Program-made: the position numbers and the translations under genes | Notes under the pieces: model-generated | The model's input: the letters and a program-made list of their open reading frames with translations, nothing else | What the model was told of the DNA's origin: nothing | Database searches by the model: none | Assembly: GCA_963827685.1 (NCBI GenBank) | Contig: CAWHBU010000007.1 | Location: 128,001 to 192,000 of the forward strand | Source of the DNA: an uncultured delta proteobacterium | GTDB taxonomy: Bacteria > Desulfobacterota > BSN033 > UBA1163 | Reading direction: 5' to 3' | Length of the DNA: 64,000 nt | In this document: positions 15,428 through 32,694 of the stretch, piece after piece | How the letters are laid out: the number at the start of each line of letters is the position of its first letter | Numbering within the stretch: position 1 is the stretch's first letter

Positions 15428-15553
15428 TTATTCTGAAAAAAGTATGAATCTCAATATAATGATTAATGCTATCCCAAGAGTGATTAACATGACCAACATT
15501 GGGAGTGATGACTCCTTCTTTTCTTCCTTTTTTTCTTACTTCTTTTCCCTCAT
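15428..15553 (-). pseudogene. second microprotein copy with TAA at codon 6
   Basis: ATG AGG GAA AAG AAG TAA; the TM-coding part is identical to copy 1 at protein level. Confidence 0.6.
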
Positions 15554-15682
15554 CCTATTTATCTCCTTTCCGGTCCCTGCGGATAGTGCAATCCTTCATC
15601 TTGATCTTTCAGTTGTAGGAAATAGGGTCATGATCTTGATCACTCGTCTCTTTTTCGGGATATCCGCATTCCTCGACCGAAT

Positions 15683-15775
15683 AAAAAAAGCCGCTACCCG
15701 AAATTTTACTTTCGAATAGCGGCCCGACTATCCAGCCCCGTTAACCTCCAGAAATATTAGAATATCTCTGGACCC
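15683..15775 (-). ncRNA. nhaA-I-like riboswitch with overlapping terminator, copy C
   Basis: GGGUCCAGAGAUAUU..AAUAUUUCUGG-AGGUU..UAGUCGGGCCGC plus terminator hairpin and U7. Confidence 0.72.
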
Positions 15776-16048
15776 ATTAAACCTCTTTTTTCAAAAACAT
15801 GAAATTTATAATAAATTATTTTAAAAATGTCAAGGATTTTTCCATTGAACTTATGAGAATCAATTCTTGAGACTGTCGATGATCGCTTGAAATCCGGACT
15901 ATTTGGATAAAAACTCTGTTAACGGGCAAGGATTCTCTCAAGACTTCTTTTTACACCTTCTTGAGGAGGGAGGCATCCATTTCATTGTTTTGTATCTCCC
16001 AACACTGAATCATCGCCGAGAATTTACCGAGACTTAACCGGCTTTTGC

Positions 16049-17149: not shown

Positions 17150-17235
17150 AATTGTTTTCCTATAATAGGGGTTTTCTTAAAGTTATGAGCTGTTTGCCGT
17201 CCATCTTTTGCCTACTGCCTACTGCCTTCTTTTTC

Positions 17236-17934
17236 CTATCTCGGCCTTTCCCTCTGTTGGATTTGAGTGAGGATCAGATTGATGAAGTAAGCAAGCAATA
17301 GGAGAATAATACCCAAGGCAATGGCAATGTCGAAATTCCCGCGACTCGTTTCCATAACAGTCGCCGTGGTAAGAACTCGGGAATAGCCTTTGATATTACC
17401 GCCTACCATGATGGAAGCACCCACCTCAGAGATCACACCACCAAATCCTGCCATCACTGCGGCCAAAAGGGGAAGCTTCGCCTCTTTGATCAAGATCCAA
17501 ACCATCTGAAAACGAGTCGCCCCGAGAGCCAGAATTTGAAGCCGAAGCTTTTGGGGAAGTTGCTGAATCGCTGCCAGAGTAATCCCCATCACGATGGGGG
17601 TGGCGATGATGGCTTGGGCAATAATCATGGCGGTGGGCGTGTAGAGGATTTCAAAAAAGCCAAGGGGCCCGTTTCTCCACAGGAAGATGGTCACGAATAG
17701 ACCCACCACCACTGGCGGAAGTCCCATGCCCGTATTGATGAGACTTACGGCAAATCGCTTTCCCGGAAATCTTGAAAGCGCGATGGTCGTCCCAACAGAA
17801 ATCCCAATCAATAAGCTGATCAGTGTAGCTGTCGCCGAAACCTCGAGAGAAAGAAGGGTGATCCCCATAACCTCAGGATCAAAGGTAATCAAGAGAAAGA
17901 AAGCCTTCTTAATCCCTTCAAAAATAAGATCCAT
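17236..17934 (-). CDS. tupB: tungstate ABC transporter permease
   Basis: NTGMGLPPVVVGL, ISEVGASIMVGGNIKG..RVLTTA. Confidence 0.9.
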   Translation of the reverse strand: MDLIFEGIKKAFFLLITFDPEVMGITLLSLEVSATATLISLLIGISVGTTIALSRFPGKRFAVSLINTGMGLPPVVVGLFVTIFLWRNGPLGFFEILYTPTAMIIAQAIIATPIVMGITLAAIQQLPQKLRLQILALGATRFQMVWILIKEAKLPLLAAVMAGFGGVISEVGASIMVGGNIKGYSRVLTTATVMETSRGNFDIAIALGIILLLLAYFINLILTQIQQRERPR

Positions 17935-17968
17935 CTCCAAACCCCAAATATCAAACACTAAAAATCTC

Positions 17969-18056
17969 CTCTCCCCTGGAGGGAGAGGATTAAGGTGAGG
18001 GGGAACAAATTCTTTTTACTCACCCCCACCCGCGCCCTCCCCCGTCAAGGGGGAGG
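17969..18056. repeat. GC-rich REP-like double hairpin (CCCTCCCC..GGGGAGGG family)
   Basis: Related copies at ~32885-32930, ~34000-34060, ~36202-36262 and ~50237-50328. Confidence 0.65.
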
Positions 18057-18135
18057 TAAGTAGGTTATATTTCTATGGTTCGCGGTAACAAATCCGTCAC
18101 GTAAGATTTGTTGGGGGGTTATTGGTGCTCGGCTA

Positions 18136-18996
18136 TTATTTTCCAAGCTCCTCTTCCTTTTTACCAGCATCCGGGAAGAAAAGAGGAAATCCGAATTTAT
18201 CGACTCCAAAGGTTTTGATGATGTCCTGGGTTTCTTTAGTGACCATGAAATCAGCAAAAGCTTTTGCCCCAGCGCTATTGACCTTAGGCCATTTCGTAGG
18301 ATTCACTTCAATGACATGATAGATGTTGAGGAGGATGGCATCCCCTTCGACCAGAATATCAAGTCCGAGGCTTTTCTTCAACGCCAGATAAGTCCCACGA
18401 TCGGCGAGTGTATAGCCTTTTTTCTCAGCGGCGACATTGAGGGTCTGGCCCATTCCAAGGCCGGTCTGCTGATACCATTTTTCTCCTTCGGGGTTGATCC
18501 CTGTAGCTTTCCAAATATCTTTTTCCTTTGCATGGGTTCCTGAATTATCTCCTCTTGACAAAAATAAGACTTTTGCCAAAGCTATTTTTTTAAACGATTC
18601 TGAAGAAGATTTTATTTCTTTGATCTTTGCCGGATCCCCGGAAGGTCCCACGATGATAAAGTCATTATGCATGACGAGCCTTCGATTTATTCCATAACCT
18701 TCAGCCATGAATTTCTTCTCAGCTTCGGGAGAATGGACCAGAAGCACATCGGCTTCTCCCTTTTGGCCCATCGCCATGGCCTGTCCCGACCCTACCGCAA
18801 TGGTCTTAACAAAATAGTCCGTCTTCTTCTCAAAGACGGGAAGAAGGACATCAAGAAGTCCCGAATCCTGCGTGCTGGTGGTGGTAGCGAGGATGATTGC
18901 CTTCGACTGCCCTTGAACAGAGAAAACTCCTGTGATGAATAAAAGTGAAACGACAACTCCTAATAACAGAATCTTTTGGCCTATCCGTCGATTCAT
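18136..18996 (-). CDS. tupA: tungstate-binding periplasmic protein
   Basis: Signal peptide, LATTTSTQDSGLL, MHNDF, SRGDNSGTH. Confidence 0.92.
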   Translation of the reverse strand: MNRRIGQKILLLGVVVSLLFITGVFSVQGQSKAIILATTTSTQDSGLLDVLLPVFEKKTDYFVKTIAVGSGQAMAMGQKGEADVLLVHSPEAEKKFMAEGYGINRRLVMHNDFIIVGPSGDPAKIKEIKSSSESFKKIALAKVLFLSRGDNSGTHAKEKDIWKATGINPEGEKWYQQTGLGMGQTLNVAAEKKGYTLADRGTYLALKKSLGLDILVEGDAILLNIYHVIEVNPTKWPKVNSAGAKAFADFMVTKETQDIIKTFGVDKFGFPLFFPDAGKKEEELGK

Positions 18997-19019
18997 AATC
19001 CTTCCTCCTTAATGGGTGA

Positions 19020-19883
19020 CTAATTTTTTTGGCCTTGTAAACTTCTCCATTCAACTGAGTTGGGAAAGAAAAGAGAACTCCCATATCTGTCTTTACCAAA
19101 GTCCCTGATGATCCTTTGGCCTTTCTCCGGAGAAGTCAGCCATTTTACAAAGATCATCACATCTTCATAATTTGCCTTCGGAAACTTCTTGGGGTTTACA
19201 GGAATCAGAGTCATATAATTCACAAGGGCATCATCTTTTTCTACCAACACAACCAATTTGATCTGGCCCTTCAGCGTAAGATAAGTAGCACGGTCAATCA
19301 CCGTATAAGCCTCTTTCTGGTCTGCATAGCACAGGGTGGGCACATTTCCCTCTGACCCTTTCTCATAAATGACATACCAGGAACCTGAAGGTTTGATCCC
19401 GGCTTTCTCCCACAACTGCATTTCCGCCACATGGGTTCCTGATTTGTCGCCCCGACTGATAAAAGTAACACCCCTCTCCGAAATCCTCTTAAGAGCCCTG
19501 GCGGCTTGTTGCATTCCTTTAATTCCGGCTTGATCATTGGAAGGGCCAACAATTACAAAATCGTTATACATCAAATCGATTCTTTCAGTCCCAAAGCCTT
19601 CACTCACAAATTTCTCTTCAAGAGATTTAGCATGGACCAAAACCAAATCCACATTTCCCTTTCGAGCAATATCTAAAGCTGCGCCAGTCCCTGAGCCCAC
19701 ATGGCGTACCCGGATACCTGTTTCTTTTTCAAATTCATTTTCCAGTAGATCAACAATGCCCGAGTCGATAGGGCCGATCGTACTGGCCATCAGGATAAAT
19801 TTACTGCTTTGAGCCAGACCCAACGAGGAATAGAGCAATAGTGAACAGAAGAATCCAACAGAAATCCATTTCTTCACACGCAC
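19020..19883 (-). CDS. TupA paralogue with variant N-terminal motif
   Basis: MASTIGPIDSG replaces TTTS; MYNDF and SRGDKSGTH retained. Confidence 0.85.
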   Translation of the reverse strand: MRVKKWISVGFFCSLLLYSSLGLAQSSKFILMASTIGPIDSGIVDLLENEFEKETGIRVRHVGSGTGAALDIARKGNVDLVLVHAKSLEEKFVSEGFGTERIDLMYNDFVIVGPSNDQAGIKGMQQAARALKRISERGVTFISRGDKSGTHVAEMQLWEKAGIKPSGSWYVIYEKGSEGNVPTLCYADQKEAYTVIDRATYLTLKGQIKLVVLVEKDDALVNYMTLIPVNPKKFPKANYEDVMIFVKWLTSPEKGQRIIRDFGKDRYGSSLFFPNSVEWRSLQGQKN

Positions 19884-19894
19884 TCTCCTTTAGA

Positions 19895-20812
19895 CTATTT
19901 TCTTGAATAGAGAACTTTCCCTGAATTCTTGAAGTCGTAGCTTCCCAATCTTTCAACCCTGCTTCGAAATTCCTGGGAGTTTAGAATTTCGATGAAAGCC
20001 TGAACTCCTTTTTCGAAAAAGGTCGATTGATCAAGGAGCATATCAAAGCTTTCCCGGGTGACCGGGATAAATGGAAGACCGAGGAGTTTAGAAACGGCGA
20101 TGGTCGCAATCCCGACATCCGCTTCCTTTGAGAGGATCGAAAGACCCACTTCAAAATGTGTGTAGACCTCTTTTCCATACCCGTTGATCTTAGAAGGTAA
20201 AATCTGCAATCGCTTCAGGTGATGGTCTAAAAGCATTCTTGTTCCAGAACCCTTCTGCCGATTGACAAACCTGATCCCCTTTTCAGCCAAATCCTCGAAC
20301 CCACCGACATGGAAAGGATTTTTAGGAGCAACGACAAACCCAAGGTCCCGGCGAAAGAGATTGACCACAACGGGTTTCACATTAGGAAGATAGGTTGGAA
20401 GGAAAGGGATATTATATTCACCGCTTTTCGGATCAAATAGGTGAGACCAGGCAATATCCGTGTAACCCATATTTAAGGCCTTGAGTCCGTCGGTGCTTCC
20501 TGTATTGGCAGAAAAGATATAAAATTCAGGATACGATTTTTTCATATAGGTTTGGAGCATATCGAGGATCGGATCGTTGCTGCCCGAAGCCAGAAGGGCC
20601 CCTCCCATTCGTCTGCTTTTCTGCCGAGCCTCTCCAAGACCAATCTTGGCGTTCGATTCAATCCATTCATCAATCAATTTCCTTGGAAAAACCCACTTCC
20701 CGGTTACCCGGGTAGACGGGATCTTTTTGGATTTGATCAAGGCATAGACCTGCTTTTCATGGATTCCCAAATATTTAGCCGCTTCTTTGGTATTCATCAT
20801 CTCGTCTGGCAT
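19895..20812 (-). CDS. excisionase-type HTH (HTH_17) plus periplasmic-binding-like domain regulator (TaoR-like)
   Basis: TKEAAKYLGIHEKQVYALI..IPSTRVTGKWVFP, GSND, GSTDGL, NRQKGSGTR. Confidence 0.85.
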   Translation of the reverse strand: MPDEMMNTKEAAKYLGIHEKQVYALIKSKKIPSTRVTGKWVFPRKLIDEWIESNAKIGLGEARQKSRRMGGALLASGSNDPILDMLQTYMKKSYPEFYIFSANTGSTDGLKALNMGYTDIAWSHLFDPKSGEYNIPFLPTYLPNVKPVVVNLFRRDLGFVVAPKNPFHVGGFEDLAEKGIRFVNRQKGSGTRMLLDHHLKRLQILPSKINGYGKEVYTHFEVGLSILSKEADVGIATIAVSKLLGLPFIPVTRESFDMLLDQSTFFEKGVQAFIEILNSQEFRSRVERLGSYDFKNSGKVLYSRK

Positions 20813-20858
20813 GACTTCCTCCAATAAATAACAAAATATTAAATGAGACGGAAATGCT

Positions 20859-20900
20859 TGTCAATGAATATATTTACAAATAACTACCTTTTATTACTCC
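20859..20900 (-). promoter_or_regulatory. promoter with phased GTA repeats upstream of regulator/tup operon
   Basis: GAGT-AATAAAAGGT-AGTTATTTGT-AAATATATTCA-TTGACA. Confidence 0.55.
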
Positions 20901-21101
20901 AAAATCCCTCTTATTTGGTATCAAATCTTTCTCTTTACTCTTTAAGAGTTACTTTCCCAGTAGGATGGAATTGTTTTCCGATTTCAGACGGAGGTCAGAT
21001 TCCTTGGCTATGAGCACCGATCAGGTCGGGCAGGATGAATAACAGGGGATCATCTGTCAAACTAAAGGCTAAATTATTGGGATGGAAATGTCCATATTAT
21101 G

Positions 21102-21171
21102 AGATAATAAGTAATAAAAAGTAATAATAAGTTATTTTTTTATTGACAACTCGCCTGGCCTCAATTATCAT
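21102..21171 (+). promoter_or_regulatory. promoter with 10-bp direct repeats upstream of the TonB-dependent receptor operon
   Basis: GATAATAAGT-AATAAAAAGT-AATAATAAGT-TATTTTTTTA-TTGACA-N17-TATCAT. Confidence 0.72.
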
Positions 21172-21387
21172 GTGTCACCAATTATGAAACGCCTCTTTTG
21201 AGTAGCTGATCAACATCTTGAAAAAATTGATGCTCCAGTAGCTCGATAGTCCTGGATTGGCATGATGCAGGGAAAGGCAAAAGAAAAAGGCAAATCGTTA
21301 GCGATTCAGCCTTCGGCGATCCTGGGGCAAGAGGTTTTTAAACTCTTGCGAGAAAGATAATTCTACACTTCAATCAAGGAGGGATTT

Positions 21388-23514
21388 ATGAAAAAGGGGG
21401 GAGTTTTCTTGATAGGCATGTGTTTGATTGTTCTTGTTTGCTTCAATGCTGCATGGGCAGAGGAAACTGCTAAAAGCGAGAGTAAGAAAGACTACCAAGT
21501 ATTTGACCTTGGGGAAATCTTTGTAACATCTGAGAAGCCGCCGGCAGTTCAAGATGTGGGCATCAGAAATGAAGTAAGCGCTGAAGACATCAAGGCCACG
21601 AATAGTACTACCGCTGCCGAGGCCTTGGCGTATGTCCCGGGGATTCGGGTTTCAACAGGACGCAAGAACCAACCCACGATTCAAATTCATGGGATGGATC
21701 AAACCCATACTTTGGTCCTCATTGACGGCGTCCCTTATTATGAAACCAAATACGGATTTCTCGATTTGAATGAGATTCCCGTCGATAACATCGCAAAAAT
21801 CGAGGTCACCAAGGGAGCGGCCTCTGTCCTCTACGGACCAAATGCTTTCATGGGGGTTGTCAACATCATTACGAAGAAACCTACTGAAAAACCTTCTGCC
21901 GACGTAACCCTGGAGTTCGGACCCTACGATACTAACAGGGAATCGGTTTCTCATGGCATGAAGGTCGGTATCTTCAGCTACTGGTTGAGCTACACCCATC
22001 AAGAGTCAGACGGATGGAGTTTGCCTAATGCTTTCATTCCACAGATCGGAACCATTACGAAAAAACCAGGGTCTACAACCAACGCCATCTTGCAAGATAC
22101 CGGCCCTCGTATTAATTCTTATTTCAAGACTGACGCCTTCTGGGCCAAAGTGGGCATCGATCCAAATCCAGGCTCAGAATACTATGTGAACTTCCATTAT
22201 ATCACCAGAGATAAAGGGGATCCTCCTTCGATATATGGTGGAACAACATTCCTCAGCCCGCCTGCCAATGCCTTTTCATCCATCTTTGACCAGATTCCAA
22301 AGTACGACGATTGGGGCATCGATTTGAGCGGGCAGCAAAAAGTCCTCAACCAATTGACCCTCAAGGGGAAGTTGTTTTATCACAATCACGTCGATGACTA
22401 CGCTTCCTATTCAGATCCGTATTATAGCAACGAAATTGCAATAAGCAGATACGAAGATTACAATTTGGGTGGGTCACTTATGGCAGACGTTCGACCTTTG
22501 GAGTGGGATATCATCAGGCTTGCTTTTAATTACAGAGGCGATTCCCACAAGGAGCGGGCTAACGATTCCCTGCCCTTTGCACCGTCATTTTCCTACACGG
22601 GGTCCGTTGGTCTTGAGAATGAGTTTAACTTAATAAAAAATTTATCCGTAGTTGCAGGAATCGGCTATGATTGGTTTAATGTCACAGAAGACAAGGTGAA
22701 TCAGATCACCAAGGCAGGAATTTACACCGGGCAAGTGAATGCAGGAAAGCGACCCGAAATGGACAACTGGGATCCAATGATTGGCGCTAACTACAACCTT
22801 ACTGACACCACGAGACTTTTTGGCTCGATTGCTCGCAAGGTGCGCTTCCCGACGCTGAACGACCTCTATTCATCCAAAGGTGGAAATCCAAACCTGAAGG
22901 CTGAAAAAACAATCAACTATACCCTTGGGGTCTCCCAATCCTTATCCAAATACGCAAAGGTAGAACTTGCTGGTTTCTATCATGACATTTCGGACTTCAT
23001 CAGTAACAGTGCAAATCCTATTCAAAATCCTTTGGCCCAGTTCCAAAATTACGCCAAAATCCAGTTGTTAGGGTTTGAGGTAAATGGAGAAATTTCCCCG
23101 ATGAAAGACCTGGTCCTCAATGCCGGTTACATGTTTAATAATGCCAGAGATAGAAGTATAGGTGCGGTAACGAGCGATGTCGCCAATATCCCTGAACATA
23201 AAATTGACGTAGGGGTCCACTATACGATCCCTTACGTCACGATTCCTTACATCAACAGCGCTACTCGTCTTGATCTTGAAGGCATCTATATGGCCAGGGT
23301 CTTCAGCCAGGTTCCAACCCCCCAATTTCCAACTCAGGCGACACAAATGGTCCACGGCTACTTTACTGCAAATGCCAGAATTTCAACGAGTTTCCTAAAA
23401 TATTTTGAAGCCTATCTGGCGGTCAACAACATCTTCGACAAGAATTATCAGTCAGAATACGGCTTCCCCGGTCCAGGGCGATGTTATTATGTCGGAATTT
23501 CTGCGAGGTATTAA
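21388..23514 (+). CDS. TonB-dependent outer-membrane receptor
   Basis: Signal peptide, TonB box LGEIFVT, plug motifs LIDGVP and IEVTKGAASVLYG..GVVNIITK, NNIFDKNY, aromatic C-terminus. Confidence 0.92.
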   Translation: MKKGGVFLIGMCLIVLVCFNAAWAEETAKSESKKDYQVFDLGEIFVTSEKPPAVQDVGIRNEVSAEDIKATNSTTAAEALAYVPGIRVSTGRKNQPTIQIHGMDQTHTLVLIDGVPYYETKYGFLDLNEIPVDNIAKIEVTKGAASVLYGPNAFMGVVNIITKKPTEKPSADVTLEFGPYDTNRESVSHGMKVGIFSYWLSYTHQESDGWSLPNAFIPQIGTITKKPGSTTNAILQDTGPRINSYFKTDAFWAKVGIDPNPGSEYYVNFHYITRDKGDPPSIYGGTTFLSPPANAFSSIFDQIPKYDDWGIDLSGQQKVLNQLTLKGKLFYHNHVDDYASYSDPYYSNEIAISRYEDYNLGGSLMADVRPLEWDIIRLAFNYRGDSHKERANDSLPFAPSFSYTGSVGLENEFNLIKNLSVVAGIGYDWFNVTEDKVNQITKAGIYTGQVNAGKRPEMDNWDPMIGANYNLTDTTRLFGSIARKVRFPTLNDLYSSKGGNPNLKAEKTINYTLGVSQSLSKYAKVELAGFYHDISDFISNSANPIQNPLAQFQNYAKIQLLGFEVNGEISPMKDLVLNAGYMFNNARDRSIGAVTSDVANIPEHKIDVGVHYTIPYVTIPYINSATRLDLEGIYMARVFSQVPTPQFPTQATQMVHGYFTANARISTSFLKYFEAYLAVNNIFDKNYQSEYGFPGPGRCYYVGISARY

Positions 23515-23648
23515 TACAAACGCATTAAATAAATTGTCTTTGCGAGGAATGAAATGACGAAGCAATCTCGTATTTATGGAGCGAGATTGCCACGCTCCCG
23601 CTGGTCGCTCGCAATGACAATGTAAAAGCATTTAATGCGTTTGTATTA
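23512..23648. repeat. palindromic REP/MITE-like element
   Basis: 19-bp terminal IR TAATACAAACGCATTAAAT enclosing TTGCGAG..GCAATCTC..GAGATTGC..CTCGCAA. Confidence 0.8.
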
Positions 23649-23702
23649 GTTGTTAAGGGTTCTCCCCGAGGACCAATGAGCATCACAAAAAAGGAGGATC
23701 AT

Positions 23703-25460
23703 ATGAAAAAAAAGTTAGCGTTGCCACATTTTTTCCTTTTCATCTTCTTTTTATGTTTTCTTGCAGTAAATGGATGGACAGCATCCTTACCAACGATCAG
23801 CATCACAGGCTCGGTCAGGCAGCCTTTAAATCTGACCCTCGAAGACCTGCAAAGATTAGAAACCGTTACGGTCCGGTTGAATGAGGTGACCAGGGATCAT
23901 CAATATAACGGCGCATTTTATTTCCGGGGGGTTCCCTTAAAAACATTGCTTGAACTTGCCTATGTTCAAAAAGAAGAAACAGGCTTTTCAAAACTTAATG
24001 ACCTTGCCGTTGTGGTGCGTAATAAGGACGGAAAGCAGACCGTCCTTTCATGGGGGGAGGTATTTTTCAGCAACCCCGGAGAAGTGGTACTGACCTTTTC
24101 CGGTACTCCCATTATGCCGCACGCAGACTGCAAGATTTGTCATGGGCCTGAGGTTTATCAGTCCAGGCTGGACATTCTTTCACGCCGGGTAGGCCTCCCC
24201 AAACTTGTCGTTGCCAATGATTTCTACACAGACCGTTCCCTTGAAGACGTAACAAATATCGAAGTGGTTGATCTGCATCTCAAAATGGTTTTTAAAAAAA
24301 CTCAAAACCTCTTCTCACCTGGGTTCATGGTAACAGGCGATGTAAAACAAACCTTAAATATCTCTGAACTTGCTTCTTATCCCCGTGCCGAGGCTCCGGC
24401 GAAAATGATAGGAGACGGAGCAGGTTATCATGGCCTGGAGTCTTACGGAGGGGTCCTTCTTTCAGAACTCCTCAAAAAAGCAGGCGTAACACCGGATTTT
24501 AATCAAGCCATCGTCATCTCAGCGCCTGATGGTTACCGTACCCTTCTTTCCTGTGGAGAAGTGTTCTTATCTTCAAGAGGAAAGAGCATCATGATTGCCG
24601 ATCAGGTGGCAAATCAACCTGTCAAGAAGGATGGGAAGTTTAAGCTTATCCTACCCGATGATCTCTCCGCTGACCGGACGGTGAAAGCCGTCAGCAAGAT
24701 CGAGGTGGTGTCCTTAAACCCCAAATCCAATTTCTACATTATAGGATTGGGCTGTTCCGACACCCGACTGGTTACCCTGGAGGCTATTTCCGCCATGGGC
24801 AAAGCTGATATCTTTGTTTGCGTAGAGGACCTCCAGAAACGGTTCGCCAAATACATCGGGAACAAACCGGTGCTCTTTGATCCTTTCAAGAGCAAACGGC
24901 ACCAGGCTAAACAGAGCTCTTCCCATGTGGATGCTAAGTACGGCCAGGAATCTATTACTGAGGAGACAAAGCGCGACATCCAAACGATCCGGGAAGCGCT
25001 CCAAGCCGGGAAAACGGTTGCCTTTCTCGAATACGGCGACCCAACCCTCTATCCAAGCTGGATGCACTGGCTCGGCGACTTGGCGAAAGAAGCGCATTAC
25101 ATCCCGGGCATCAGCGCTTTTAACGCCTCGAACGCTATGATCGGGAGGCATATTGGCTGTAAGGGATCGATCATTCTCACAGTCCCAAGGGGTCTGCAGG
25201 AGAATGAGCCCCTGCTCAAGGCAGTAGCGGAAAATGGCGACACGGTGGCTATCTTTGTCGGGCTGAAGGAGTTGAAAAATCTCAAACCTCTCTTCCAAAA
25301 GCACTACGCAAACACAACACCCGTCCATCTTGTCTACAGGGCAGGATATTCTGACAGTGAATATTTGGTGAAAACCACGATTGCAGAAGTTGTCGAGGTG
25401 GCGGAGAAAGAACAGGAGAAGTATTTGGGAATGATTTATATCGGCCCGTGCCTGAAGTAG
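23703..25460 (+). CDS. secreted fusion: two molybdopterin-oxidoreductase-like domains with CxxCH plus C-terminal tetrapyrrole (CobM/CbiF-like) methylase domain
   Basis: Signal peptide; ITGSVRQPLNLTLEDL/GVPLKTLL and VTGDVKQTL/GVLLSELL/APDGY; CKICH; IIGLG..D..VTLEA..ADI, YGDPTLY, IPGISAF. Confidence 0.75.
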   Translation: MKKKLALPHFFLFIFFLCFLAVNGWTASLPTISITGSVRQPLNLTLEDLQRLETVTVRLNEVTRDHQYNGAFYFRGVPLKTLLELAYVQKEETGFSKLNDLAVVVRNKDGKQTVLSWGEVFFSNPGEVVLTFSGTPIMPHADCKICHGPEVYQSRLDILSRRVGLPKLVVANDFYTDRSLEDVTNIEVVDLHLKMVFKKTQNLFSPGFMVTGDVKQTLNISELASYPRAEAPAKMIGDGAGYHGLESYGGVLLSELLKKAGVTPDFNQAIVISAPDGYRTLLSCGEVFLSSRGKSIMIADQVANQPVKKDGKFKLILPDDLSADRTVKAVSKIEVVSLNPKSNFYIIGLGCSDTRLVTLEAISAMGKADIFVCVEDLQKRFAKYIGNKPVLFDPFKSKRHQAKQSSSHVDAKYGQESITEETKRDIQTIREALQAGKTVAFLEYGDPTLYPSWMHWLGDLAKEAHYIPGISAFNASNAMIGRHIGCKGSIILTVPRGLQENEPLLKAVAENGDTVAIFVGLKELKNLKPLFQKHYANTTPVHLVYRAGYSDSEYLVKTTIAEVVEVAEKEQEKYLGMIYIGPCLK

Positions 25461-25470
25461 AGCCCGAGTC

Positions 25471-26808
25471 ATGCAACTCAAGCGCAGGCTTAACCTTTTT
25501 GATGCGACTCTGCTCGTTATCGGTAACGTGGTTGGGGCAGGTATCTTCACAACGAGCGGCTTTTTGGCCGGTGAGCTGCCCCAACCCTTGCTTTTTATCG
25601 CCATCTGGGTCATAGGGGGACTTCTTACGTTATGCGGAGCCTTGACCTATGCCGAGATGGCGGGGATGTTTCCCCGTTCGGGCGGAGATTACCAATTCTT
25701 AAAAGAGGCATATGGCCCATGGGCGGGTTTTCTCCTGGGCTGGGTCAGCTTTTGGGTGATCACCCCAGGCTCCATTGCCGTGCTTTCCATTGCGATGGTA
25801 GCGTATATAAAAGGTTTTCTCCCTCTTCATTACGCTCTTTCAGAAAAGTTCTTAGCAGTGGCAATCATCTCTTTCCTCTCTTTTATAAACTACCGAGGGG
25901 TACGCTTGAGTGGAACGATACAGGACATTTTTACCCTGGGAAACCTGCTCATCATTCTTGCATTAATCTTAGGCGGATTAACATCTGGAAACGGCAATTG
26001 GCAGCACTTTACGGCGGCCTCTCCAGCCTCTTTGCCTTTTCCCAAACTTTTTGGACCCGCGATGATTGCGGTGCTTTTTACTTATAGCGGTTGGTTTGCT
26101 TCTGCCTACATTGGGGCCGAAGTCAAAAACCCTGAGAGGAATCTTCCCTTTTCCCTGTTATTGGGGACAATCATCGTTACCCTTTTTTACACGGCTATCA
26201 ATCTTGTTTATCTCTATGCCCTTCCGCTTTCACAACTGAAAGGTACTGTCAATGTGGCACAAGTTACGGCAGGGACCCTTTTCAACCCCAGGGTTGCTCA
26301 GGTCGTTTCCTTATCGATCATTCTGGCTATCAGCGGCAGCATCAATGCGACGATCCTTGGGGGAACGCGCATCTATTACGCGATGGCTGAAGACAAGATC
26401 TTCTGGTCCCCCCTGAAAAGGCTTCACCCCAAGTACGGCACTCCCCATTTTTCCATTTTGAGTCAACTGATTTTAGCCTGCATCCTGGTTTCATTAGGAA
26501 CGTTTGGCCAATTGCTAAGCTATGTGGTGTTTGTGATGCTACTCTCCTCCATTGCCGCAGGCGTGGCCCATTTTATATTGCGTCTGCGAAAACCGGGCCT
26601 GCCAAGACCTTACCGCACCGGAGCATATCCTGTTGTCCCTCTCCTATTTATTTGTTTTTATATTTGGATTGCCATTCAAATAGCCTATGCCAAGCCGCTG
26701 ACCTCCATCGCAGGTCTGATCATCACTCTTTCTGGATTGCCTTTCTTTATCTGGTTTAAAACAATCAGATTTCGAGGAAAAAACAAGATGGATTACGGAA
26801 TGGCTTAG
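25471..26808 (+). CDS. APC family amino-acid permease
   Basis: GNVVGAGIF, YAEMAGMFPRSGGDY, YSGW, EVKNPERNLP, RPYRT. Confidence 0.88.
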   Translation: MQLKRRLNLFDATLLVIGNVVGAGIFTTSGFLAGELPQPLLFIAIWVIGGLLTLCGALTYAEMAGMFPRSGGDYQFLKEAYGPWAGFLLGWVSFWVITPGSIAVLSIAMVAYIKGFLPLHYALSEKFLAVAIISFLSFINYRGVRLSGTIQDIFTLGNLLIILALILGGLTSGNGNWQHFTAASPASLPFPKLFGPAMIAVLFTYSGWFASAYIGAEVKNPERNLPFSLLLGTIIVTLFYTAINLVYLYALPLSQLKGTVNVAQVTAGTLFNPRVAQVVSLSIILAISGSINATILGGTRIYYAMAEDKIFWSPLKRLHPKYGTPHFSILSQLILACILVSLGTFGQLLSYVVFVMLLSSIAAGVAHFILRLRKPGLPRPYRTGAYPVVPLLFICFYIWIAIQIAYAKPLTSIAGLIITLSGLPFFIWFKTIRFRGKNKMDYGMA

Positions 26809-26964
26809 GATGTGGATTTTCGGGTACCACAAGCTCTTAAAATCGTAGTCAACACTTATCGAATTAAAGTTCCCCTTGTAAATGATGATGTGCTTTGAGC
26901 ACAGTAGCAATAAATGACAGACTCTTTTCTTAGAGCGGCGCCTGGTCTTCAAAGGAGGAATGAG

Positions 26965-27588
26965 ATGTTTGCAGGGAAAACAGTGTGGGAAATCATTCAG
27001 ATTGGTGGTTTCACGATGTACATCCTACTCTTCTGCTCTTTTTTATCCATCACCATCCTTTTGGAAAGGATCATTTACTACAGAAGACTATCCCGAACCA
27101 AAAGATCGGAATTTATGACGAGAATAAAAAGGGCATTGAAAAGTGGGAGTATTGAAAAGGCCATGGAAATCTGCAAGCACACTCATGCGCCTATCTCGAA
27201 TGTCATTTATTCCGGACTGGTGCTCCATGATCACCATGAAAAACAAATATCCAGCGCGATGGAGCGAGAGATCACGGTCGAAACCACAAAATTAGAGCGT
27301 TTCACGAGCATCGTGGGAACCATTGGGAACACGGCTGTTTATATCGGGCTCTTTGGAACAGTGCTCGGGATCATCAGGGCATTTCATGATATCGCCGTGG
27401 CCGGAGCCGGTGGAATGAGCATTGTCATCGGGGGGGTGGCCGAAGCACTGGTCTGTACGGCCATGGGGCTTTTCGTAGCTGTCCCTGCAGTCATCGCATT
27501 CAATTACTTTATGAAAAGAGTTGAACGGTTTATCAATGATATGGAAATATGCGCTTCCGAATTAATCGACCTGATGGGCAAGGAATAA
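26965..27588 (+). CDS. exbB: MotA/TolQ/ExbB proton channel protein
   Basis: IGLFGTVLGIIRAF, GVAEALVCTAMGL. Confidence 0.88.
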   Translation: MFAGKTVWEIIQIGGFTMYILLFCSFLSITILLERIIYYRRLSRTKRSEFMTRIKRALKSGSIEKAMEICKHTHAPISNVIYSGLVLHDHHEKQISSAMEREITVETTKLERFTSIVGTIGNTAVYIGLFGTVLGIIRAFHDIAVAGAGGMSIVIGGVAEALVCTAMGLFVAVPAVIAFNYFMKRVERFINDMEICASELIDLMGKE

Positions 27589-27594
27589 AGTATT

Positions 27595-27996
27595 ATGAAG
27601 AGAAAAAATAGAAGATCCCGATTAATGGCAGAGATTAACATCACCCCTTTTACCGATGTGGTTCTGGTTCTATTGATCATCTTCATGATCGCTACCCCTT
27701 TCATTTATCAATCCAGTCTGAAAGTTCAATTGCCCAAGGCATCGAAATCTGAGGAGACATCGCGAGACATCATCATCAACATTAATGCTCAGGGAGAGGT
27801 TTTCTTTGAGGATACGAAACTTGATTTAGAGACGCTCAAATATAAGCTGAGGGCTATGATGAGAAGTAAGCCGGACGCGTTTGTGATTGTTAACGGGGAT
27901 AAGAATGTCAAATATGATTCAGTGATACAGGTGATGGATGTCTTAACGCAATCGGGCGTCAAGAACCCTGGCTTAGGGATAGAACTAAAAAAATGA
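27595..27996 (+). CDS. exbD: ExbD/TolR protein
   Basis: EINITPFTDVVLVLLIIFMI. Confidence 0.9.
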   Translation: MKRKNRRSRLMAEINITPFTDVVLVLLIIFMIATPFIYQSSLKVQLPKASKSEETSRDIIININAQGEVFFEDTKLDLETLKYKLRAMMRSKPDAFVIVNGDKNVKYDSVIQVMDVLTQSGVKNPGLGIELKK

Positions 27997-28949
27997 ATAG
28001 ATTAAAAATTGTGGGGAAACAACCCCGTCTTCTTATGGATTTACCTCAATCGGATACAGGGGGACTGTTGAGGACAGGGGTTTTCTCTTTCCTCCTCCAT
28101 ATTGTCTTAATCAGCTTTCTGATTCTTAACCTGAAGACAGGAACCACAAGAGGTAGGTTTCCTGTTTATCGGGTGACCATTCAACCCTTATCCCTTCAGA
28201 ACAACTCGAAACCCCTTCTCCCCCAGGCGTTGCCAGCTCCCCAGCCCATTCCTGTAAAACCTCAAATTCAGAAAGAAGAAATTAGGCCAAAGGAAGACGT
28301 AAAAAAGAATGAACCTGTTAAAGAACCAAAACAAGTCACTCAACTCAAGGAGGATGAGCAAACCATACAAAAGCCAATCCCCTTACCAATGGCTGAAACA
28401 TCGACTTTGAATACGGACTTAACACTGAAAAAGGAAGAAATTCTCTCTATTCCTACGGTCCTCCCCCCTCAAGAAAAAAATACCTTAACAAAATCAGGAA
28501 CTGGAGGTTCTTCCCTCAGCGGTTCTGGTGAAGGAGAAGGAATTGGAGGAGGGTCTCGATGGGGAGGTATAGGAAAAGGGACTGGGACGGAACGAGGGGG
28601 TTCCGGTTTTGGAGGTTCCGGAAAAGGGTCAGGGACTGGAAAGGGGGGCGGTCGGGGTGGTTCTGGTGCAGCCTCACCCATATATGGTGAGAATCCAAAA
28701 CCTCCCTATCCTCTGGAAGCCAGGGAAAGAGGATACCAGGGGAAAGTCTTATTGAAGGTGGAGGTTCTTCCCGATGGCCGGGTGGGTGAGATTGAGTTGA
28801 AAGAGTCTTCTGGCTACGAAGTGCTTGATCAATCTGCTCTCGCCACGGTGAAAAAATGGAGATTTATTCCTGCCAGGAAGGGAAAAGTTGCAATCTCCTG
28901 CTGGGTAAACGTACCGATTACTTTTCAGCTCAAAGATATTTCCTTCTGA
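27993..28949 (+). CDS. tonB: TonB energy transducer
   Basis: TM with His (LLHIVL), Pro/Lys- then Gly-rich linker, PPYP..A..GYQG.V, SSG..LD, WRF.PA. Confidence 0.88.
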   Translation: MNRLKIVGKQPRLLMDLPQSDTGGLLRTGVFSFLLHIVLISFLILNLKTGTTRGRFPVYRVTIQPLSLQNNSKPLLPQALPAPQPIPVKPQIQKEEIRPKEDVKKNEPVKEPKQVTQLKEDEQTIQKPIPLPMAETSTLNTDLTLKKEEILSIPTVLPPQEKNTLTKSGTGGSSLSGSGEGEGIGGGSRWGGIGKGTGTERGGSGFGGSGKGSGTGKGGGRGGSGAASPIYGENPKPPYPLEARERGYQGKVLLKVEVLPDGRVGEIELKESSGYEVLDQSALATVKKWRFIPARKGKVAISCWVNVPITFQLKDISF

Positions 28950-29073
28950 GCTGGTATAAGATATTTGGTGTAAAAAGAGAGAGGGGTGTTATCCTCTTAG
29001 GAAGATTTTCGGCAAAATACAATCCCAATGAGAAAGGAGGCCAGGTTTTTGGGTTGAAAATGTGAATAATATA

Positions 29074-29134
29074 AGATAATAAGTAATAAAAAGTTATTTT
29101 TTTTCTTGACAAATAAAATCCTCCTTATTATTAT
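29074..29134 (+). promoter_or_regulatory. promoter sharing an identical 21-bp repeat block with 21102-21122
   Basis: AGATAATAAGTAATAAAAAGT-TATTTTTTTTC-TTGACA-N17-TATTAT. Confidence 0.72.
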
Positions 29135-29276
29135 GTTGACTCGATTTTTGGAAATTCGTTGCAATCCTTGGAAAGGAAGGGAAGATTTGACTCAAGTGAA
29201 GTTGGTTGTGAATTTTATTAATACGCTCAGAAATCACGAAACACGATTCACGAATCACAGAAGGAGGAGGGGGGAG

Positions 29277-30890
29277 ATGAAAAAATTCATTGTTCTATGC
29301 TTAGCCGGGCTTCTAATTCTGGCGTTTAGCGCACCAGGATATGCCCAGGCACCAAAATTGGAATTCAAAGCATCAGGCTACATCGATACCCAAACGTTTA
29401 TTGGCGAAGGTGTTCCGCAATATAATAGCAACCCAGGCAATACAGACATTTGGGGCGTTGTTAATAAAAACTACGCTCTAACGAGCCCATCGGGAACCTA
29501 TGGCATAGGCTCTGCAGGTTGGAACAGGACCCAATCCAACTGGGAAGGCCGCGCCCACCTCAAATTCGATGCGGTGATGGGCCCGAATTTGAGCGGAACC
29601 ATCTACTTCGAGATAGATACTTACCGATGGGGCGCCCCAATGAATTCATATGGCGCATGGACGAGAGAGGCGAATAACTTTGGCTCGTGGACGACTGACC
29701 GGACTGCAATCGAGGTCAAGAACATCTATATCGATGTTGGCCTCCCCTATTTCGGAATCCCGGTACCCATAACGGTGAGGGTGGGCGCCCAGCCATTAGG
29801 CGTCCGGCCGAACATGTTAATGTATACGGATGGTACAGGGGTCACGGGTGGCATCAAGATTGACCCTGTGCTCATCGCTCCGATTTATGCCAAGGCCCTT
29901 GAAAACCTTGATTTTGCCGACGACGATGTGGATGTCTGGGGTCTCCATGCGAATGCCAAGATCAGAACTTTCACGGTAGGCGCCTACGGTCTCTGTTACA
30001 GGATGAACACCTATCCATTCTATGTGCAAGGCGCGACTGTCATCCCTGCTGGCGTAAGTGGCAACACTGGCTTAATTAACCAAGTCCCAGGGACCTTTAA
30101 ATCCCATATGTGGTGGTTGGGAGCTTATGTGGATGGGAAGGCAGGTCCGGTTAATTTCAATTACGACTTTGTGTATGACTATGGCTCGGTTGACGAGCGA
30201 CTATCCCCAAATGTCCACAATGTCAAATACGAGGGGTGGGCAACACGACTCAAAGCTGACTATCCATGGGAGAAGTTCAACTTCGGAGTGGTTGGCATGT
30301 ATGCTACGGGCGCTGATACCAGAAGGACCTCTTCCAGTGGCCTCCCAGGAAGTTTGACAGCCGGTCTTCCTGGTGCGGCTAGTGGGAGGCAGTCTACCAG
30401 AGTCACAAGCTATGTCATTCCGCCTGGTGCAGAACAGTCATCAGCTGACCAAGAGTCGATCGTTGTCTATGGCATGGAGAACGGAGCCAGCGGAGGCTAC
30501 GGTATTGCCCACATGATCAATTACGGACAAGTGAGTAGAGGCGGATTCGGTGGAACCTGGTTTGCCAAGCTCTATGGCAGTGCCAAGCTATTACCGTGGT
30601 ATAAGGTCACCCTCCAGGGACTTTATATTGGTGATACCACCGGAAACGGAAATACCCTCGGTAACGCTGTAAAGTATAAAGGTGCTTCATTGTTGAGGGA
30701 TGACAATTCTATTGGTTTTGAATTGGATTTGATGAATGATATACAGATTTACAACAACCTGAGGTTCTGGGTCGGTGCTGGGTACCTCTTTGCCGGGAAC
30801 GCACTGGATATAAATAATGCGGGGAGTGGTGTAAACCATTCAGCGGCGAACCCCTGGGCCATCAGGACAAGATTGGTCTACACCTTCTAA
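29277..30890 (+). CDS. outer-membrane porin (deltaproteobacterial OmpJ/homotrimeric porin-like)
   Basis: Start MKKF after GGAGG, signal peptide, LSGTIYFEID, IEVKNIYID, amphipathic beta strands, C-terminal LVYTF. Confidence 0.75.
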   Translation: MKKFIVLCLAGLLILAFSAPGYAQAPKLEFKASGYIDTQTFIGEGVPQYNSNPGNTDIWGVVNKNYALTSPSGTYGIGSAGWNRTQSNWEGRAHLKFDAVMGPNLSGTIYFEIDTYRWGAPMNSYGAWTREANNFGSWTTDRTAIEVKNIYIDVGLPYFGIPVPITVRVGAQPLGVRPNMLMYTDGTGVTGGIKIDPVLIAPIYAKALENLDFADDDVDVWGLHANAKIRTFTVGAYGLCYRMNTYPFYVQGATVIPAGVSGNTGLINQVPGTFKSHMWWLGAYVDGKAGPVNFNYDFVYDYGSVDERLSPNVHNVKYEGWATRLKADYPWEKFNFGVVGMYATGADTRRTSSSGLPGSLTAGLPGAASGRQSTRVTSYVIPPGAEQSSADQESIVVYGMENGASGGYGIAHMINYGQVSRGGFGGTWFAKLYGSAKLLPWYKVTLQGLYIGDTTGNGNTLGNAVKYKGASLLRDDNSIGFELDLMNDIQIYNNLRFWVGAGYLFAGNALDINNAGSGVNHSAANPWAIRTRLVYTF

Positions 30891-31140
30891 CCCAATCGTA
30901 ACGAAAAAGGCGGCTTTTTCCGGCCCCTTTTTTTTGGCCTTGTAACCATTGTCATCCACACTCATGTGAATAATAAGGTCGTTGCCAAACTCAATAAGCT
31001 GGATCATAGTGGGCTTGGCATGACGAATGTATTATTATTTCATAATATGACGGTGTCGTGAAGTCCTGACTGGTTTCTATTCCAAGAACGTTGTGTGAAC
31101 CTATATCCGGATAAAGAAGAGGAGAAGGCATGAAGAGTCT

Positions 31141-31326
31141 TTCTTCCGAATGGCCGGGTGGGTGAGATTGAGTTGAAAGAGTCTTCCGGCTACGAAGTGC
31201 TTGATCAATCTGCTCTCGCCACGGTGAAAAAATGGAGATTTATTCCTGCCAGGAAGGGAAAGGTTGCAATCTCCTGCTGGGTAAACGTACCGATTACTTT
31301 TCAGCTCAAAGATATTTCCTTCTGAG
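31141..31326 (+). repeat. 186-bp duplicate of the tonB 3' end (28765-28950)
   Basis: Aligns without gaps with about 4 mismatches; no tonB N-terminus upstream. Confidence 0.9.
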
Positions 31327-31447
31327 ATATTTGGTTCTTTCCAAGTGGTGGATCTGTGATTCCACGCCCAAAGACAGAAGCACTGCCTTACCGAATTGCT
31401 CTGTGGATTTCAATGTTTTCTATTTCGAAATCTATTTTTAGAAAATA

Positions 31448-31484
31448 GAACTCGGGGGGACGGAAGGTCCATCCCCCCGAGTTC
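31448..31484 (-). terminator. hairpin terminator after thiolase
   Basis: GAACTCGGGGGGA..TCCCCCCGAGTTC. Confidence 0.65.
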
Positions 31485-31489
31485 AGACG

Positions 31490-32694
31490 TTAACCAACCT
31501 TGAAGATCATGGCAGCAGCGGTATCACCGGCAGCACAACCGGTAAAGAGGCAATACCCCCCACCCAAGAGCACCATCTCCTCCAGCATCTCCATAATGAT
31601 CCGGCCCGCTGTCGGGGCCTGGGGATGCCCGTAGATCAGGGAGCAGCCATAGTTGTTCATCTTCATGACATCGATACCCATTTTCTTTGCAAAGTTGATG
31701 TCATTGGTGGCAAAGGGGTTGTGGGTCTTGATGGCCTTCATGTCCGTGATCTTAAGCCCGGCGTTGGCAAGGACCATTTCGGCGGCTGGCACGGGCGCAG
31801 CAGCCATGTAACCTGGCTTAACCCGAGCAAAGCCATAGGATAAAATTTTTATTTCTATCTTTGGATCGGCACTCAGTTCCTTGGCCCTGTCCCGGGTGGT
31901 TACGATGAAGCCGCAGTTACCGTCGGCGGGGAACGTCTGGGCCCCGAAGCTGTGGACACCACCCGGCTCAGCCGGTTTGAGCTTGGCCAGACCTTCAGCA
32001 GTGGTCGGGGTCACACCTTCGTCCTGATCAACAATCTTGGTCTGTTTCTTGGAGACTTTCACCTCCACCGGAAACATGTAGCGTTTCTGGAAGGCCCTGT
32101 CATTCGCCAAAGCCATAAGATACTGCTCGTAGCGCCTCAGGACCACCGCATCACACTCCTCCTTTGTGATCCCCACTTCCCTTGCTACGTTCTCAGCGGT
32201 CCTTAGCATCTTGGTCCGTGTTCTGGGGTCTCCCTCGAAGTTGTCCATCATCCAGTTTTCGCTCTCCACCTCACCTCCAGGGCCGAGGGGTTGGGCCACA
32301 CCGTATGGGCCCCGTTCGAGCAACGGTCGGTCATCAGCCCAAAGGCCACATTGAGCGAACCATGATCAATGGCGAGTGCGGCGAGTTGGAGAATCGTCGT
32401 GGAAGTTGAGCAGGCCTGGTGGATGAAGACCGCGGGCACGTGTTTCTGATCATCCAGCAGGGTGGCGGCAGACCAGGTGTGGCCGTAAAACAGGTGGTGT
32501 TGCGGAATGGTGATCCCGAAGTAAACGTACTCGATAATGGTAGGATCAATCTTTTTCTTCTACAGAAACCAGTTGCGGGCTGTCTTGCCCCCGATCTCGA
32601 TTGCGTTCTCATTCTGCAGGCTCCCCTGCCAGCGGCAGAACGGGCTCGAATAGTAGCCGTTGTAAGGGATATACACGTTCTCAAAAGTATCCAT
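31490..32694 (-). pseudogene. thiolase family protein with in-frame TAG (32560-32562) and frameshift (~32288)
   Basis: MDTFENVYIPY..SSPFCRWQG..NWFL*KKK..QACSTS..WPNP / LGPGG..HNPFA..GHPQAPT..GCAAGD. Confidence 0.85.

Follow-up and report, generated by a model that had tools for sequence, protein, structure and literature searches.

Tungstate and molybdate are held, in the textbook view, to diffuse through the porins of the outer membrane and to be captured in the periplasm by ModA, TupA or WtpA. A further route is offered by MolBC-A, the type II ATP-binding cassette (ABC) importer of molybdate/tungstate of Haemophilus influenzae. Regulators of the TaoR family, which join an HTH_17 domain to a PBP-like domain, are described as tungstate-responsive and as regulating tupABC in PMC11980592, PMC12327845 and PMC10102598; besides transport, the family is reported in PMC11980592 and PMC10102598 to regulate a tungstoenzyme. 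Proteins able to hold pterins in the periplasm are known as well: PruR, a secreted protein with the sulfite oxidase (SUOX) fold and no molybdenum-ligand cysteine, is described as doing so in PMC11194511. Here we report a locus in which a tungstate importer and a TaoR-like regulator are encoded next to a TonB-dependent receptor (TBDR) and an unusual exported fusion protein. The locus resides in a stretch of 64 kb, hereafter the window, from an uncultured Desulfonema-like delta proteobacterium (assembly GCA_963827685.1, contig CAWHBU010000007.1, positions 128,001 to 192,000). We propose, with a probability of about 0.6, that it encodes a system for the TonB-dependent acquisition of tungsten (possibly molybdenum), which feeds TupABC and is controlled by the TaoR-family regulator.

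Gene content and organization of the locus

The gene inventory was derived from the listing of open reading frames (ORFs) and from Pfam and NCBIfam profile scans of the window. The genes of the locus are the following:

16049-17149, minus strand: tupC-like ABC ATPase with a C-terminal TOBE domain (Pfam ABC_tran 5e-32, TOBE 1.9e-12)
17236-17958, minus strand: tupB-like ABC permease (BPD_transp_1)
18136-18996, minus strand: tupA2, canonical-type tungstate-binding protein
19020-19883, minus strand: tupA1, divergent TupA paralogue
19895-20812, minus strand: TaoR-family one-component regulator, HTH_17 plus PBP_like (PF12728 1.7e-15, PF12727 1.7e-62)
21388-23514, plus strand: TBDR (plug PF07715 4.8e-26, barrel PF00593 9.9e-35)
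23676-25460 (ORF; likely start 23703), plus strand: fusion protein, made of a first SUOX/PruR-fold domain with CxxCH, a second SUOX/PruR-fold domain and a class III methyltransferase fold
25471-26808, plus strand: LAT/SLC7-type APC permease (AA_permease_2, PF13520, 6.2e-58)
26914-27588, plus strand: exbB (MotA_ExbB 1.1e-32)
27595-27996, plus strand: exbD (ExbD 7.5e-32)
27993-28949, plus strand: tonB (TonB_C 7.3e-24)
29277-30890, plus strand: outer-membrane porin, distantly DESULF_POR1-like (NF033939 99.5 bits, cut-off 250)

An earlier sequence-only reading of this DNA had listed a regulator, two TupA, tupBC, a TBDR, a fusion gene, a permease, exbB-exbD-tonB and a porin, and every one of these genes was found in the window. 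The regulator, tupA1, tupA2, tupB and tupC genes form a tightly spaced array on the minus strand, divergent from the TBDR operon; a gap of 11 nt separates the regulator gene from tupA1-tupA2-tupB-tupC, which follow it in the same orientation. The tup genes fall beyond the left boundary (19895) of the segment originally flagged. Some gene starts differ from those listed. The regulator is listed from a TTG at 20824, and its likely start is the ATG at 20812, which has GGAGG ahead of it; the homologues in two related species (loci L003 and L004) are 305 aa long. The fusion protein probably starts at 23703, because all homologues begin at that methionine, and the resulting length matches that of 585-aa homologues. 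The listed porin ORF starts at 29106, which is the TTGACA -35 box of the porin promoter; the real start is the ATG at 29277, which follows a GGAGG.

The regulator and the tungstate importer

The HTH_17 plus PBP_like architecture of the regulator is that described for TaoR in PMC11980592. Against the TupA profile NF041772 (cut-off 400), TupA2 scores 256 bits and TupA1 182 bits. TupB passes NF038017 (275 bits, cut-off 100) and misses the TupB profile NF041773 (163 bits, cut-off 320), while the top NCBIfam match of TupC, to WtpC, reaches 298 bits with a cut-off of 440. TupA2 resembles the tungstate-binding protein of PDB entry 3lr1 (E 3.8e-67), and carries, within ATTTSTQDSG, the anion-binding motif TTTS. 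TupA1 is 42% identical to TupA2, and has STIG instead of TTTS; the same variant is found in the related locus L046. Besides the window, 6 of the 18 related loci holding TupA (L009, L012, L013, L046, L053, L055) have TupA paralogues in which STIGP or TGSP replaces TTTS, and these adjoin canonical TupA genes. To judge from these replacements, the ligand of the STIGP/TGSP-type paralogues may differ from plain tungstate.

The host genome (own assembly of 5.2 Mb, 94.5% complete) has 13 genes encoding AFOR_N, the tungsten aldehyde:ferredoxin oxidoreductase domain of the AOR family. No TupA-like gene was found in this genome outside the locus, and no ModA above cut-off. Having a single Tup site, 13 AFOR_N genes and no ModA above cut-off, the organism therefore appears to depend on this regulon for its tungsten supply. 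The chance of finding a TupA-like gene in a random 20-kb stretch would be well under 1%. The AFOR_N gene nearest to the locus (C7:203301-203903) lies about 11 kb past the end of the window.

A motif common to three promoters

The claim that one repeat is common to three promoters of the locus was borne out. A core motif, AGTAATAAAARGT, is located 5' of each of the three best sigma-70-like promoters (scores 11/12, 11/12 and 10/12, the best three such sites within 15500-31600):

20836-20898, minus strand: promoter of the regulator-tup operon, motif copy AGTAATAAAAGGT at 20886-20898; region kept in L003 and L004
21103-21171, plus strand: promoter of the TBDR operon, motif repeats at 21110-21132, -35 box at 21143, -10 box ending at 21171
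29038-29134, plus strand: porin promoter, an 82% copy of the TBDR promoter region, motif at 29082-29094

When the three regions are aligned, AGTAATAAAARGT is followed by TTGACAA, and then by the -10 box. A direct repeat of 60 nt (21066-21125 and 29038-29097, 82% identity) underlies the similarity, with a partial inverted copy at 20867-20898. The 13-mer has three exact matches and one match with a single mismatch in the window, all of them in these promoter regions. About 0.20 matches are expected by chance in the window, and four were reached in none of 100 shuffles. A 20-nt version of the repeat is confined, in the whole 5.2-Mb assembly, to this locus. The block is conserved 5' of both the regulator and the TBDR genes in the related species of L003 and L004 (protein identities of about 80-90%), and looser GTAAT/AGTTAT repeats are found upstream of TBDR genes in the distant loci L046, L013 and L015. 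The adjacent TaoR-family regulator most likely binds AGTAATAA-type repeats located just upstream of the three -35 boxes.

Riboswitches do not seem to take part in the control of the locus. No cobalamin or molybdenum cofactor (Moco) riboswitch was found by Rfam gathering thresholds in the window and in 7 related loci, a permissive scan of 20800-21420 gave chance-level matches only, and the 216-nt leader of the TBDR folds no better than shuffled sequences (z -1.0). Homologous operons lying under cobalamin riboswitches had been named by the sequence-only reading as evidence that would speak against it; no such riboswitch was found in the window, the leader or the 7 related loci.

The exported fusion protein

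The fusion protein (residues are numbered on the 594-aa ORF translation) carries a Sec-type signal peptide, with K/R-K and no RR in 11/11 aligned members of the family. A model of the whole protein, searched with Foldseek, showed only the methylase fold; therefore the N-terminal part was folded and searched separately. The AlphaFold model of residues 38-348 (pLDDT 90.2) has two domains with the Moco-binding fold of sulfite oxidase. Structure matches of this model include SorA (Z 16.4, root-mean-square deviation (rmsd) 2.0 over 133 residues, 29% identity) and chicken sulfite oxidase (Z 15.6). Domain 2 matches PruR (7kom, 7rkb and 7kou; Z 14.3-14.5, rmsd 1.8-1.9, 120-121 residues).

The fusion protein has a single CxxCH, and C152, C155 and H156 are invariant in 73/73 sequences. 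These are the only invariant cysteines within residues 38-348 in the same 73 sequences, and a conserved molybdenum-ligand cysteine is missing. The loops at the position of the ligand read YHGAF and GDGxGYHG, a mapping which is approximate, being taken from structural alignment ranges. Many arginines and lysines are invariant in the SUOX-fold domains. The CxxCH suggests that the fusion protein would carry a c-type haem. A pair of small membrane proteins, one CcsA-like (PF01578) and one ResB-like without Pfam match, is encoded directly upstream of fusion homologues (e.g. L029 609-2146, L058 8421-9947). CcsA-like and ResB-like genes are located beside the fusion gene in 25 and 29, respectively, of 59 loci (L009-L059), and in 12/27 and 13/27 of those with flanks of at least 5 kb; neither the window nor its closest relatives have the pair. 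The CcsA-like neighbours found in relatives support the covalent attachment of haem to the CxxCH of the fusion protein.

Periplasmic Moco enzymes are exported folded via the Tat pathway. The fusion protein had been described as a secreted union of a Moco domain, haem and a methylase. Export signal, one CxxCH and methylase fold were all confirmed, and what had been called a Moco domain turned out to be two SUOX/PruR-fold domains without the conserved cysteine. Sec export, the predicted haem c and the missing cysteine together argue against a classical Moco enzyme. A Moco-containing periplasmic enzyme was indeed among the candidates considered, and was rejected on account of the Sec signal and the missing cysteine ligand.

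The C-terminal part (residues 350-594) has a class III tetrapyrrole-methylase fold (PF00590, 1.6e-35), closest to CbiF/CobM. The loops expected to contact S-adenosylmethionine (SAM), GxGxxD, GDP and PGxS, are invariant, and GPGD is changed into GC(A/S)D, with an invariant cysteine replacing the proline. The top curated methylase match, cobM_cbiF, scores 71 bits with a cut-off of 260, and no equivalog is reached. A search of the ESM Atlas with the C-terminal domain retrieved generic TP_methylase clusters only.

Related loci

Proteins with the architecture of the fusion make up at least 571 clusters at 90% identity, and are annotated only as "SAM-dependent methyltransferase" or "precorrin methylase". 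When one genome per species was scanned, 78 related loci were obtained, denoted here by L numbers. They come from Desulfobacteraceae/Desulfonema, Syntrophales/Smithella, Syntrophorhabdus, Thermodesulfovibrionales/Nitrospirota, Spirochaetota/Leptospiraceae, Geobacteraceae/Pelobacter/Desulfuromonas and Ca. Abyssobacteria. Neighbours were counted by tblastn with the 12 proteins of the window in loci with at least 2.5 kb on both sides, according to the form of the homologue:

Full-length fusion, 28 loci: TBDR of this type in 22, TupA in 13, permease in 16
N-terminal-only form, 9 loci: TBDR of this type in 9, TupA in 3, permease in 0
Secreted methylase-only form (about 30% identical), 15 loci: TBDR of this type in 0, TupA in 1, permease in 14

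A separate clustering of all ORFs, in 27 loci with flanks of 5 kb or more at either end, found TBDR in 23, TupA in 12, TupB in 8, TonB in 13, ExbD in 12 and the regulator in 7. The link of TBDR and fusion protein with tungstate transport, already claimed from the window alone, recurs in records of Thermodesulfobacteriota, Nitrospirota, Syntrophorhabdia, Spirochaetota and Geobacterales type. As an example, the genes TBDR-fusion-permease-(285-aa ORF)-exbB-exbD-tupA1-type-tupA2-type-tupB-tupC of L046 all point the same way in one array, from which the regulator gene diverges. In four Nitrospirota loci (L042, L044, L045, L054) the N-terminal-only form directly precedes tupA genes, and in L042, L044 and L054 these are part of a tupA-tupA-tupB-tupC array.

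Genes of the FmdE family are located near the fusion gene in four loci (L013, L024, L053, L055) and in L037. Anion porins of the Porin_O_P family reside among tupA genes in four others, L009, L012, L049 (e.g. 19251-20687) and L057. A MolBCA-like FecCD/Peripla_BP_2 set also occurs in related loci, and in L037 FmdE-DUF364-Peripla_BP_2-FecCD-ATPase directly precedes the fusion gene. The FmdE, Porin_O_P and FecCD-type neighbours point to tungsten or molybdenum.

The presence of the permease follows the methylase fold. The difference between full-length and N-terminal-only forms (16/28 versus 0/9, Fisher p = 0.005) is indicative only, because the loci are not phylogenetically independent; among secreted methylase-only loci 14/15 have the permease. 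The neighbourhood counts therefore delineate two modules: module (a), TBDR and SUOX-fold cytochrome (plus CcsBA), tied to Tup, and module (b), the exported methylase fold with the permease. Module (b) recurs without module (a) in Ca. Electronema (L071 5473-15232) and Desulfosarcina (L060 6960-14010), where proteins with a signal peptide and one or two TP_methylase domains are encoded with another TBDR, SBP_bac_5 and DUF4198, and with a permease 35-38% identical to that of the window. The L071/L060 module is possibly a nickel/cobalt counterpart.

The permease has its best PDB match in 6f2g (E 1.7e-61), followed by y+LAT1, xCT, LAT2, Asc-1 and LAT1, and scores 203 bits against TIGR00911, with a cut-off of 702. 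Its closest relatives, 6f2g and the SLC7 light chains, are amino-acid exchangers. Prediction of a complex of the methylase-fold domain with the permease gave a score of 0.00, which bears neither way. The proposal that an organic moiety of the cargo is handed to the permease is unsupported as originally worded, since the permease follows the methylase-fold domain, rather than the receptor or Tup; because of this association, it is only one of several readings.

The receptor and the porin

The TBDR falls under the cut-off of every curated model for haem, siderophore and B12 receptors (TonB-hemin 147 versus 317, TonB-siderophore 143 versus 223.5, BtuB 129 versus 600). Among its weak NCBIfam matches, families of haem and B12 receptors rank first, and its similarity to solved receptors in the PDB is mainly in the plug. 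A plain B12 or haem uptake system was considered and rejected, on account of the lack of riboswitches, receptor scores under cut-off and Tup as the conserved partner.

The porin is specific to this genome, being absent from 78/78 related loci in tblastn searches. Recruitment of the porin to the regulon seems to be due to promoter duplication. A second copy of the final 186 nt of tonB, 98% identical, follows the porin gene, and the relatives L003 and L004 have no porin there:

31141-31326, plus strand: 98% copy of the last 186 nt of tonB (source 28765-28950)

Porin and promoter look like a 2.2-kb insertion, because the end of tonB, repeated beyond the porin, marks the far edge. A truncated thiolase gene (31490-32323, 277 aa, partial Thiolase_N) comes next.

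Proposed mechanism and alternatives

According to the model that we favour, the regulator, cotranscribed with the two TupA genes and tupBC, would control the operon to which it belongs, the divergent operon of the TBDR and the porin gene, presumably in response to tungsten. The TBDR, powered by the co-encoded ExbB-ExbD-TonB, would import the metal through the outer membrane, in a form not provided by porins. The leading guess for this form is a metal complexed with a pterin-type or other organic or thio ligand. The fusion protein, exported via Sec, would take over the cargo; its two SUOX/PruR-fold domains would bind it, and the c-type haem would perform a redox step. The metal would be freed as tungstate, pass to TupA2 or TupA1, and enter through TupBC. 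Methylase-fold domain and LAT-type permease would be a separable module for a SAM-like or amino-acid-like molecule, used in the processing or left from it. Import of a W/Mo chelate or a pterin had been suggested from the start, and the fold of the N-terminal domains, which is PruR-like, speaks in favour of a pterin.

Several observations weigh against this model. TupA is not within reach in 15 of the 28 full-length loci, 6 of the 28 have no such TBDR, and in L026, L028 and L047 the fusion gene has none of its partners. Related loci share phylogeny, and the counts are not independent. Both TupA, TupB and TupC all fall under the NCBIfam equivalog cut-offs. The exact 13-mer AGTAATAAAARGT is missing from 78/78 related loci, which have only a degenerate footprint in common, and the motif sits upstream of near-consensus promoters, an arrangement that no simple activator or repressor model fits. 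The methyltransferase fold is predicted to be periplasmic, with no obvious supply of SAM. Finally, no metallophore biosynthesis or export genes recur near the related loci.

The last point leads to the first of the alternatives. The TBDR could take up, at trace levels, a bare or thio oxyanion (tungstate, thiotungstate, thiomolybdate) with no organic ligand, and the haem/SUOX-fold protein could convert or hold the anion before TupA, for instance by oxidative removal of sulfur. The lack of recurrent ligand biosynthesis or export genes fits this hypothesis, as do the anion porins among tupA genes in four related loci and the porin in the regulon described here, the many invariant arginines and lysines of the SUOX-fold domains, and the non-TTTS TupA variants of the window and of 6/18 TupA-holding loci. 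Yet, methylase-fold domain and permease are left unexplained, the fold of the pocket is of the pterin type, and we know of no TBDR for an oxyanion. We regard the hypothesis as unlikely.

A bolder idea concerns module (b), and is in our opinion doubtful, somewhat more so than the uptake of a bare anion. The secreted methylase-fold protein and the LAT-type exchanger might form a general periplasmic module for the unloading of TonB-imported metals. The exchanger would bring SAM, or another cosubstrate of amino-acid type, to the periplasm and remove the product. The exported enzyme would alkylate the ligand holding the metal, and thereby free the latter. Tungsten would then pass to TupA in the bacterium described here, and nickel or cobalt would be released in cable bacteria and Desulfosarcina. 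If true, SAM-dependent reactions would take place beyond the cytoplasm, and metals would be released on a new principle.

Alternatively, the receptor could import intact molybdo- or tungsto-pterin, or molybdopterin, from other cells, and the PruR-like domains could carry the cofactor, to be used as such. The PruR/SUOX pterin-binding fold, Sec export and the lack of a molybdenum-ligand cysteine are compatible with salvage of this kind, and PruR binds pterins in the periplasm (PMC11194511). Still, the locus has no inner-membrane transporter fit for a phosphorylated pterin, its partners being an oxyanion ABC importer and an amino-acid-type exchanger, and the tight link to TupA suggests that the metal is set free as an oxyanion. 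Salvage of an intact cofactor thus seems quite improbable.

The fusion protein could also be an enzyme of the periplasm that performs a redox step on, or methylates, a nutrient imported by the TBDR; it would then be co-regulated with tungstate uptake only because regulators of the TaoR family control tungsten-related enzymes too, and would have no part in metal uptake. We believe this to be very improbable. The Sec signal has no twin arginine, and periplasmic Moco enzymes use Tat; a conserved molybdenum-ligand cysteine is missing; and N-terminal-only forms are embedded between TBDR and tupA-tupA-tupBC genes. What speaks for such an enzyme is the resemblance of SUOX fold plus cytochrome c to sulfite dehydrogenase, and the reported regulation of a tungstoenzyme, as well as of transport, by the TaoR family (PMC11980592, PMC10102598). 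Least credible of all is the import of a tetrapyrrole (corrinoid, haem or Ni/Co-tetrapyrrole) bound by the tetrapyrrole-methylase-fold domain, a view suggested by a C-terminal domain closest to CbiF/CobM, by the haem and B12 receptor families as best weak NCBIfam matches of the TBDR and by the Ni/Co-type genes (SBP_bac_5, DUF4198) that accompany secreted methylase-only relatives, but contradicted by the lack of cobalamin riboswitches in the window, the leader and 7 related loci, by receptor-family scores all far under cut-offs, by the lack of BtuFCD- or Hmu-type genes at the locus, and by Tup as the conserved partner.

No publication tying a TBDR to TupA or tungstate, and none on a secreted tetrapyrrole-methylase-fold protein with an amino-acid permease, was found in a literature search that covered the main texts of openly available papers. 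A Halomonas genome paper matching the search terms proved unrelated. The locus contributes a fusion of three parts, a methylase-fold/permease module that can be separated from the rest, a probable operator of TaoR type common to three promoters and a porin with a duplicated promoter. A bacterium of sulfate-reducer type, rich in tungsten enzymes, has its sole tungstate importer coupled with an energised outer-membrane receptor and with an exported haem/pterin-fold/methylase-fold protein that is uncharacterised, and this points to undescribed scavenging of tungsten or molybdenum in anaerobes. If TonB-dependent acquisition is true, the textbook porin picture would have to make room for a conserved route that is energised by TonB and has a haem/pterin-fold protein of its own in the periplasm. 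Anaerobes of sulfidic, metal-poor habitats would actively mine tungsten or molybdenum, probably from a bound form, and the modelling of W/Mo limitation in syntrophs, sulfate reducers and Nitrospirota would be altered. Three families that are uncharacterised would also gain functions, namely the clade of the TBDR, the SUOX/PruR-fold cytochrome, and the secreted class III methyltransferase-fold proteins with their LAT-type permease. Complete and compact operons exist, L046 among them, which make the system directly testable.

Other features of the window

A short element resembling miniature mobile DNA separates the TBDR and fusion genes; many relatives hold ccsA/resB-like genes at that position:

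23512-23648: 137-nt element with perfect terminal inverted repeats of 19 nt

The large subunit of a molybdoenzyme of the xanthine dehydrogenase family (MoCoBD_1/2, Ald_Xan_dh_C) is encoded 8 kb downstream of the locus (38961-41300, minus strand), and members of this family are also encoded close to the fusion gene in 5 related loci. On the opposite side, three matches to the nhaA-I (Na+) riboswitch exceed the gathering threshold on the minus strand, at 9049-9111, 9252-9312 and 15714-15775, two of them in tandem. The third is located upstream of a GT20 gene (12957-14999, minus strand) similar to trehalose-6-phosphate synthase, and other trehalose synthase- and phosphatase-like genes are near. 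The proximity of nhaA-I matches to trehalose genes suggests Na+-controlled synthesis of an osmolyte.

Comparison with known systems

Single parts of the locus have known counterparts, from which each of them departs in some respect. The methylase-fold domain is like the precorrin-4 C11-methyltransferases CbiF/CobM in its fold and in the three SAM-loop motifs. It differs because it is exported, has GC(A/S)D in place of GPGD, lacks a corrin-pathway context and is linked to a LAT-type permease. SorA, of the SorAB sulfite dehydrogenase type, is the best structural match of the N-terminal half, and association with c-type haem is likewise a trait of the SorAB and YedY/MsrP group; in contrast, the fusion protein has a Sec rather than a Tat signal, no conserved cysteine in the molybdenum loop and no dimerisation domain. 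PruR of Agrobacterium and other Proteobacteria is alike in being a secreted small SUOX-fold domain without the molybdenum-ligand cysteine (PMC11194511). Here two such domains are in tandem, one of them with an inserted CxxCH, and both are joined to a methylase fold; a gene for a signalling partner of DcpA type was not found at the window locus.

The overall layout recalls the BtuB-BtuFCD, siderophore and haem systems, which likewise combine a plug-and-barrel receptor, an own ExbB-ExbD-TonB, a periplasmic partner and an ABC importer. Yet, the receptor fits none of the curated models, the importer is of the oxyanion type, and the periplasmic partner is a haem/SUOX-fold/methylase-fold protein, not a class III binding protein. 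MolBC-A is approached by the Geobacteraceae locus L037, in which the fusion gene comes directly after FmdE-DUF364-Peripla_BP_2-FecCD-ATPase; its FecCD-type importer differs from the TupABC used in the window. A further counterpart is the TupABC system of Desulfovibrio with TaoR/TupR, in which the same HTH_17 plus PBP_like regulator adjoins tupA-tupB-tupC. TupA2 is alike in TTTS and in its similarity to 3lr1, whereas the second TupA of the window is without TTTS, and all Tup components stay under equivalog cut-offs. The regulon described here is also wider than regulator and importer, since it takes in a TBDR, the exported fusion protein, a permease of LAT type, ExbBD-TonB and a porin.

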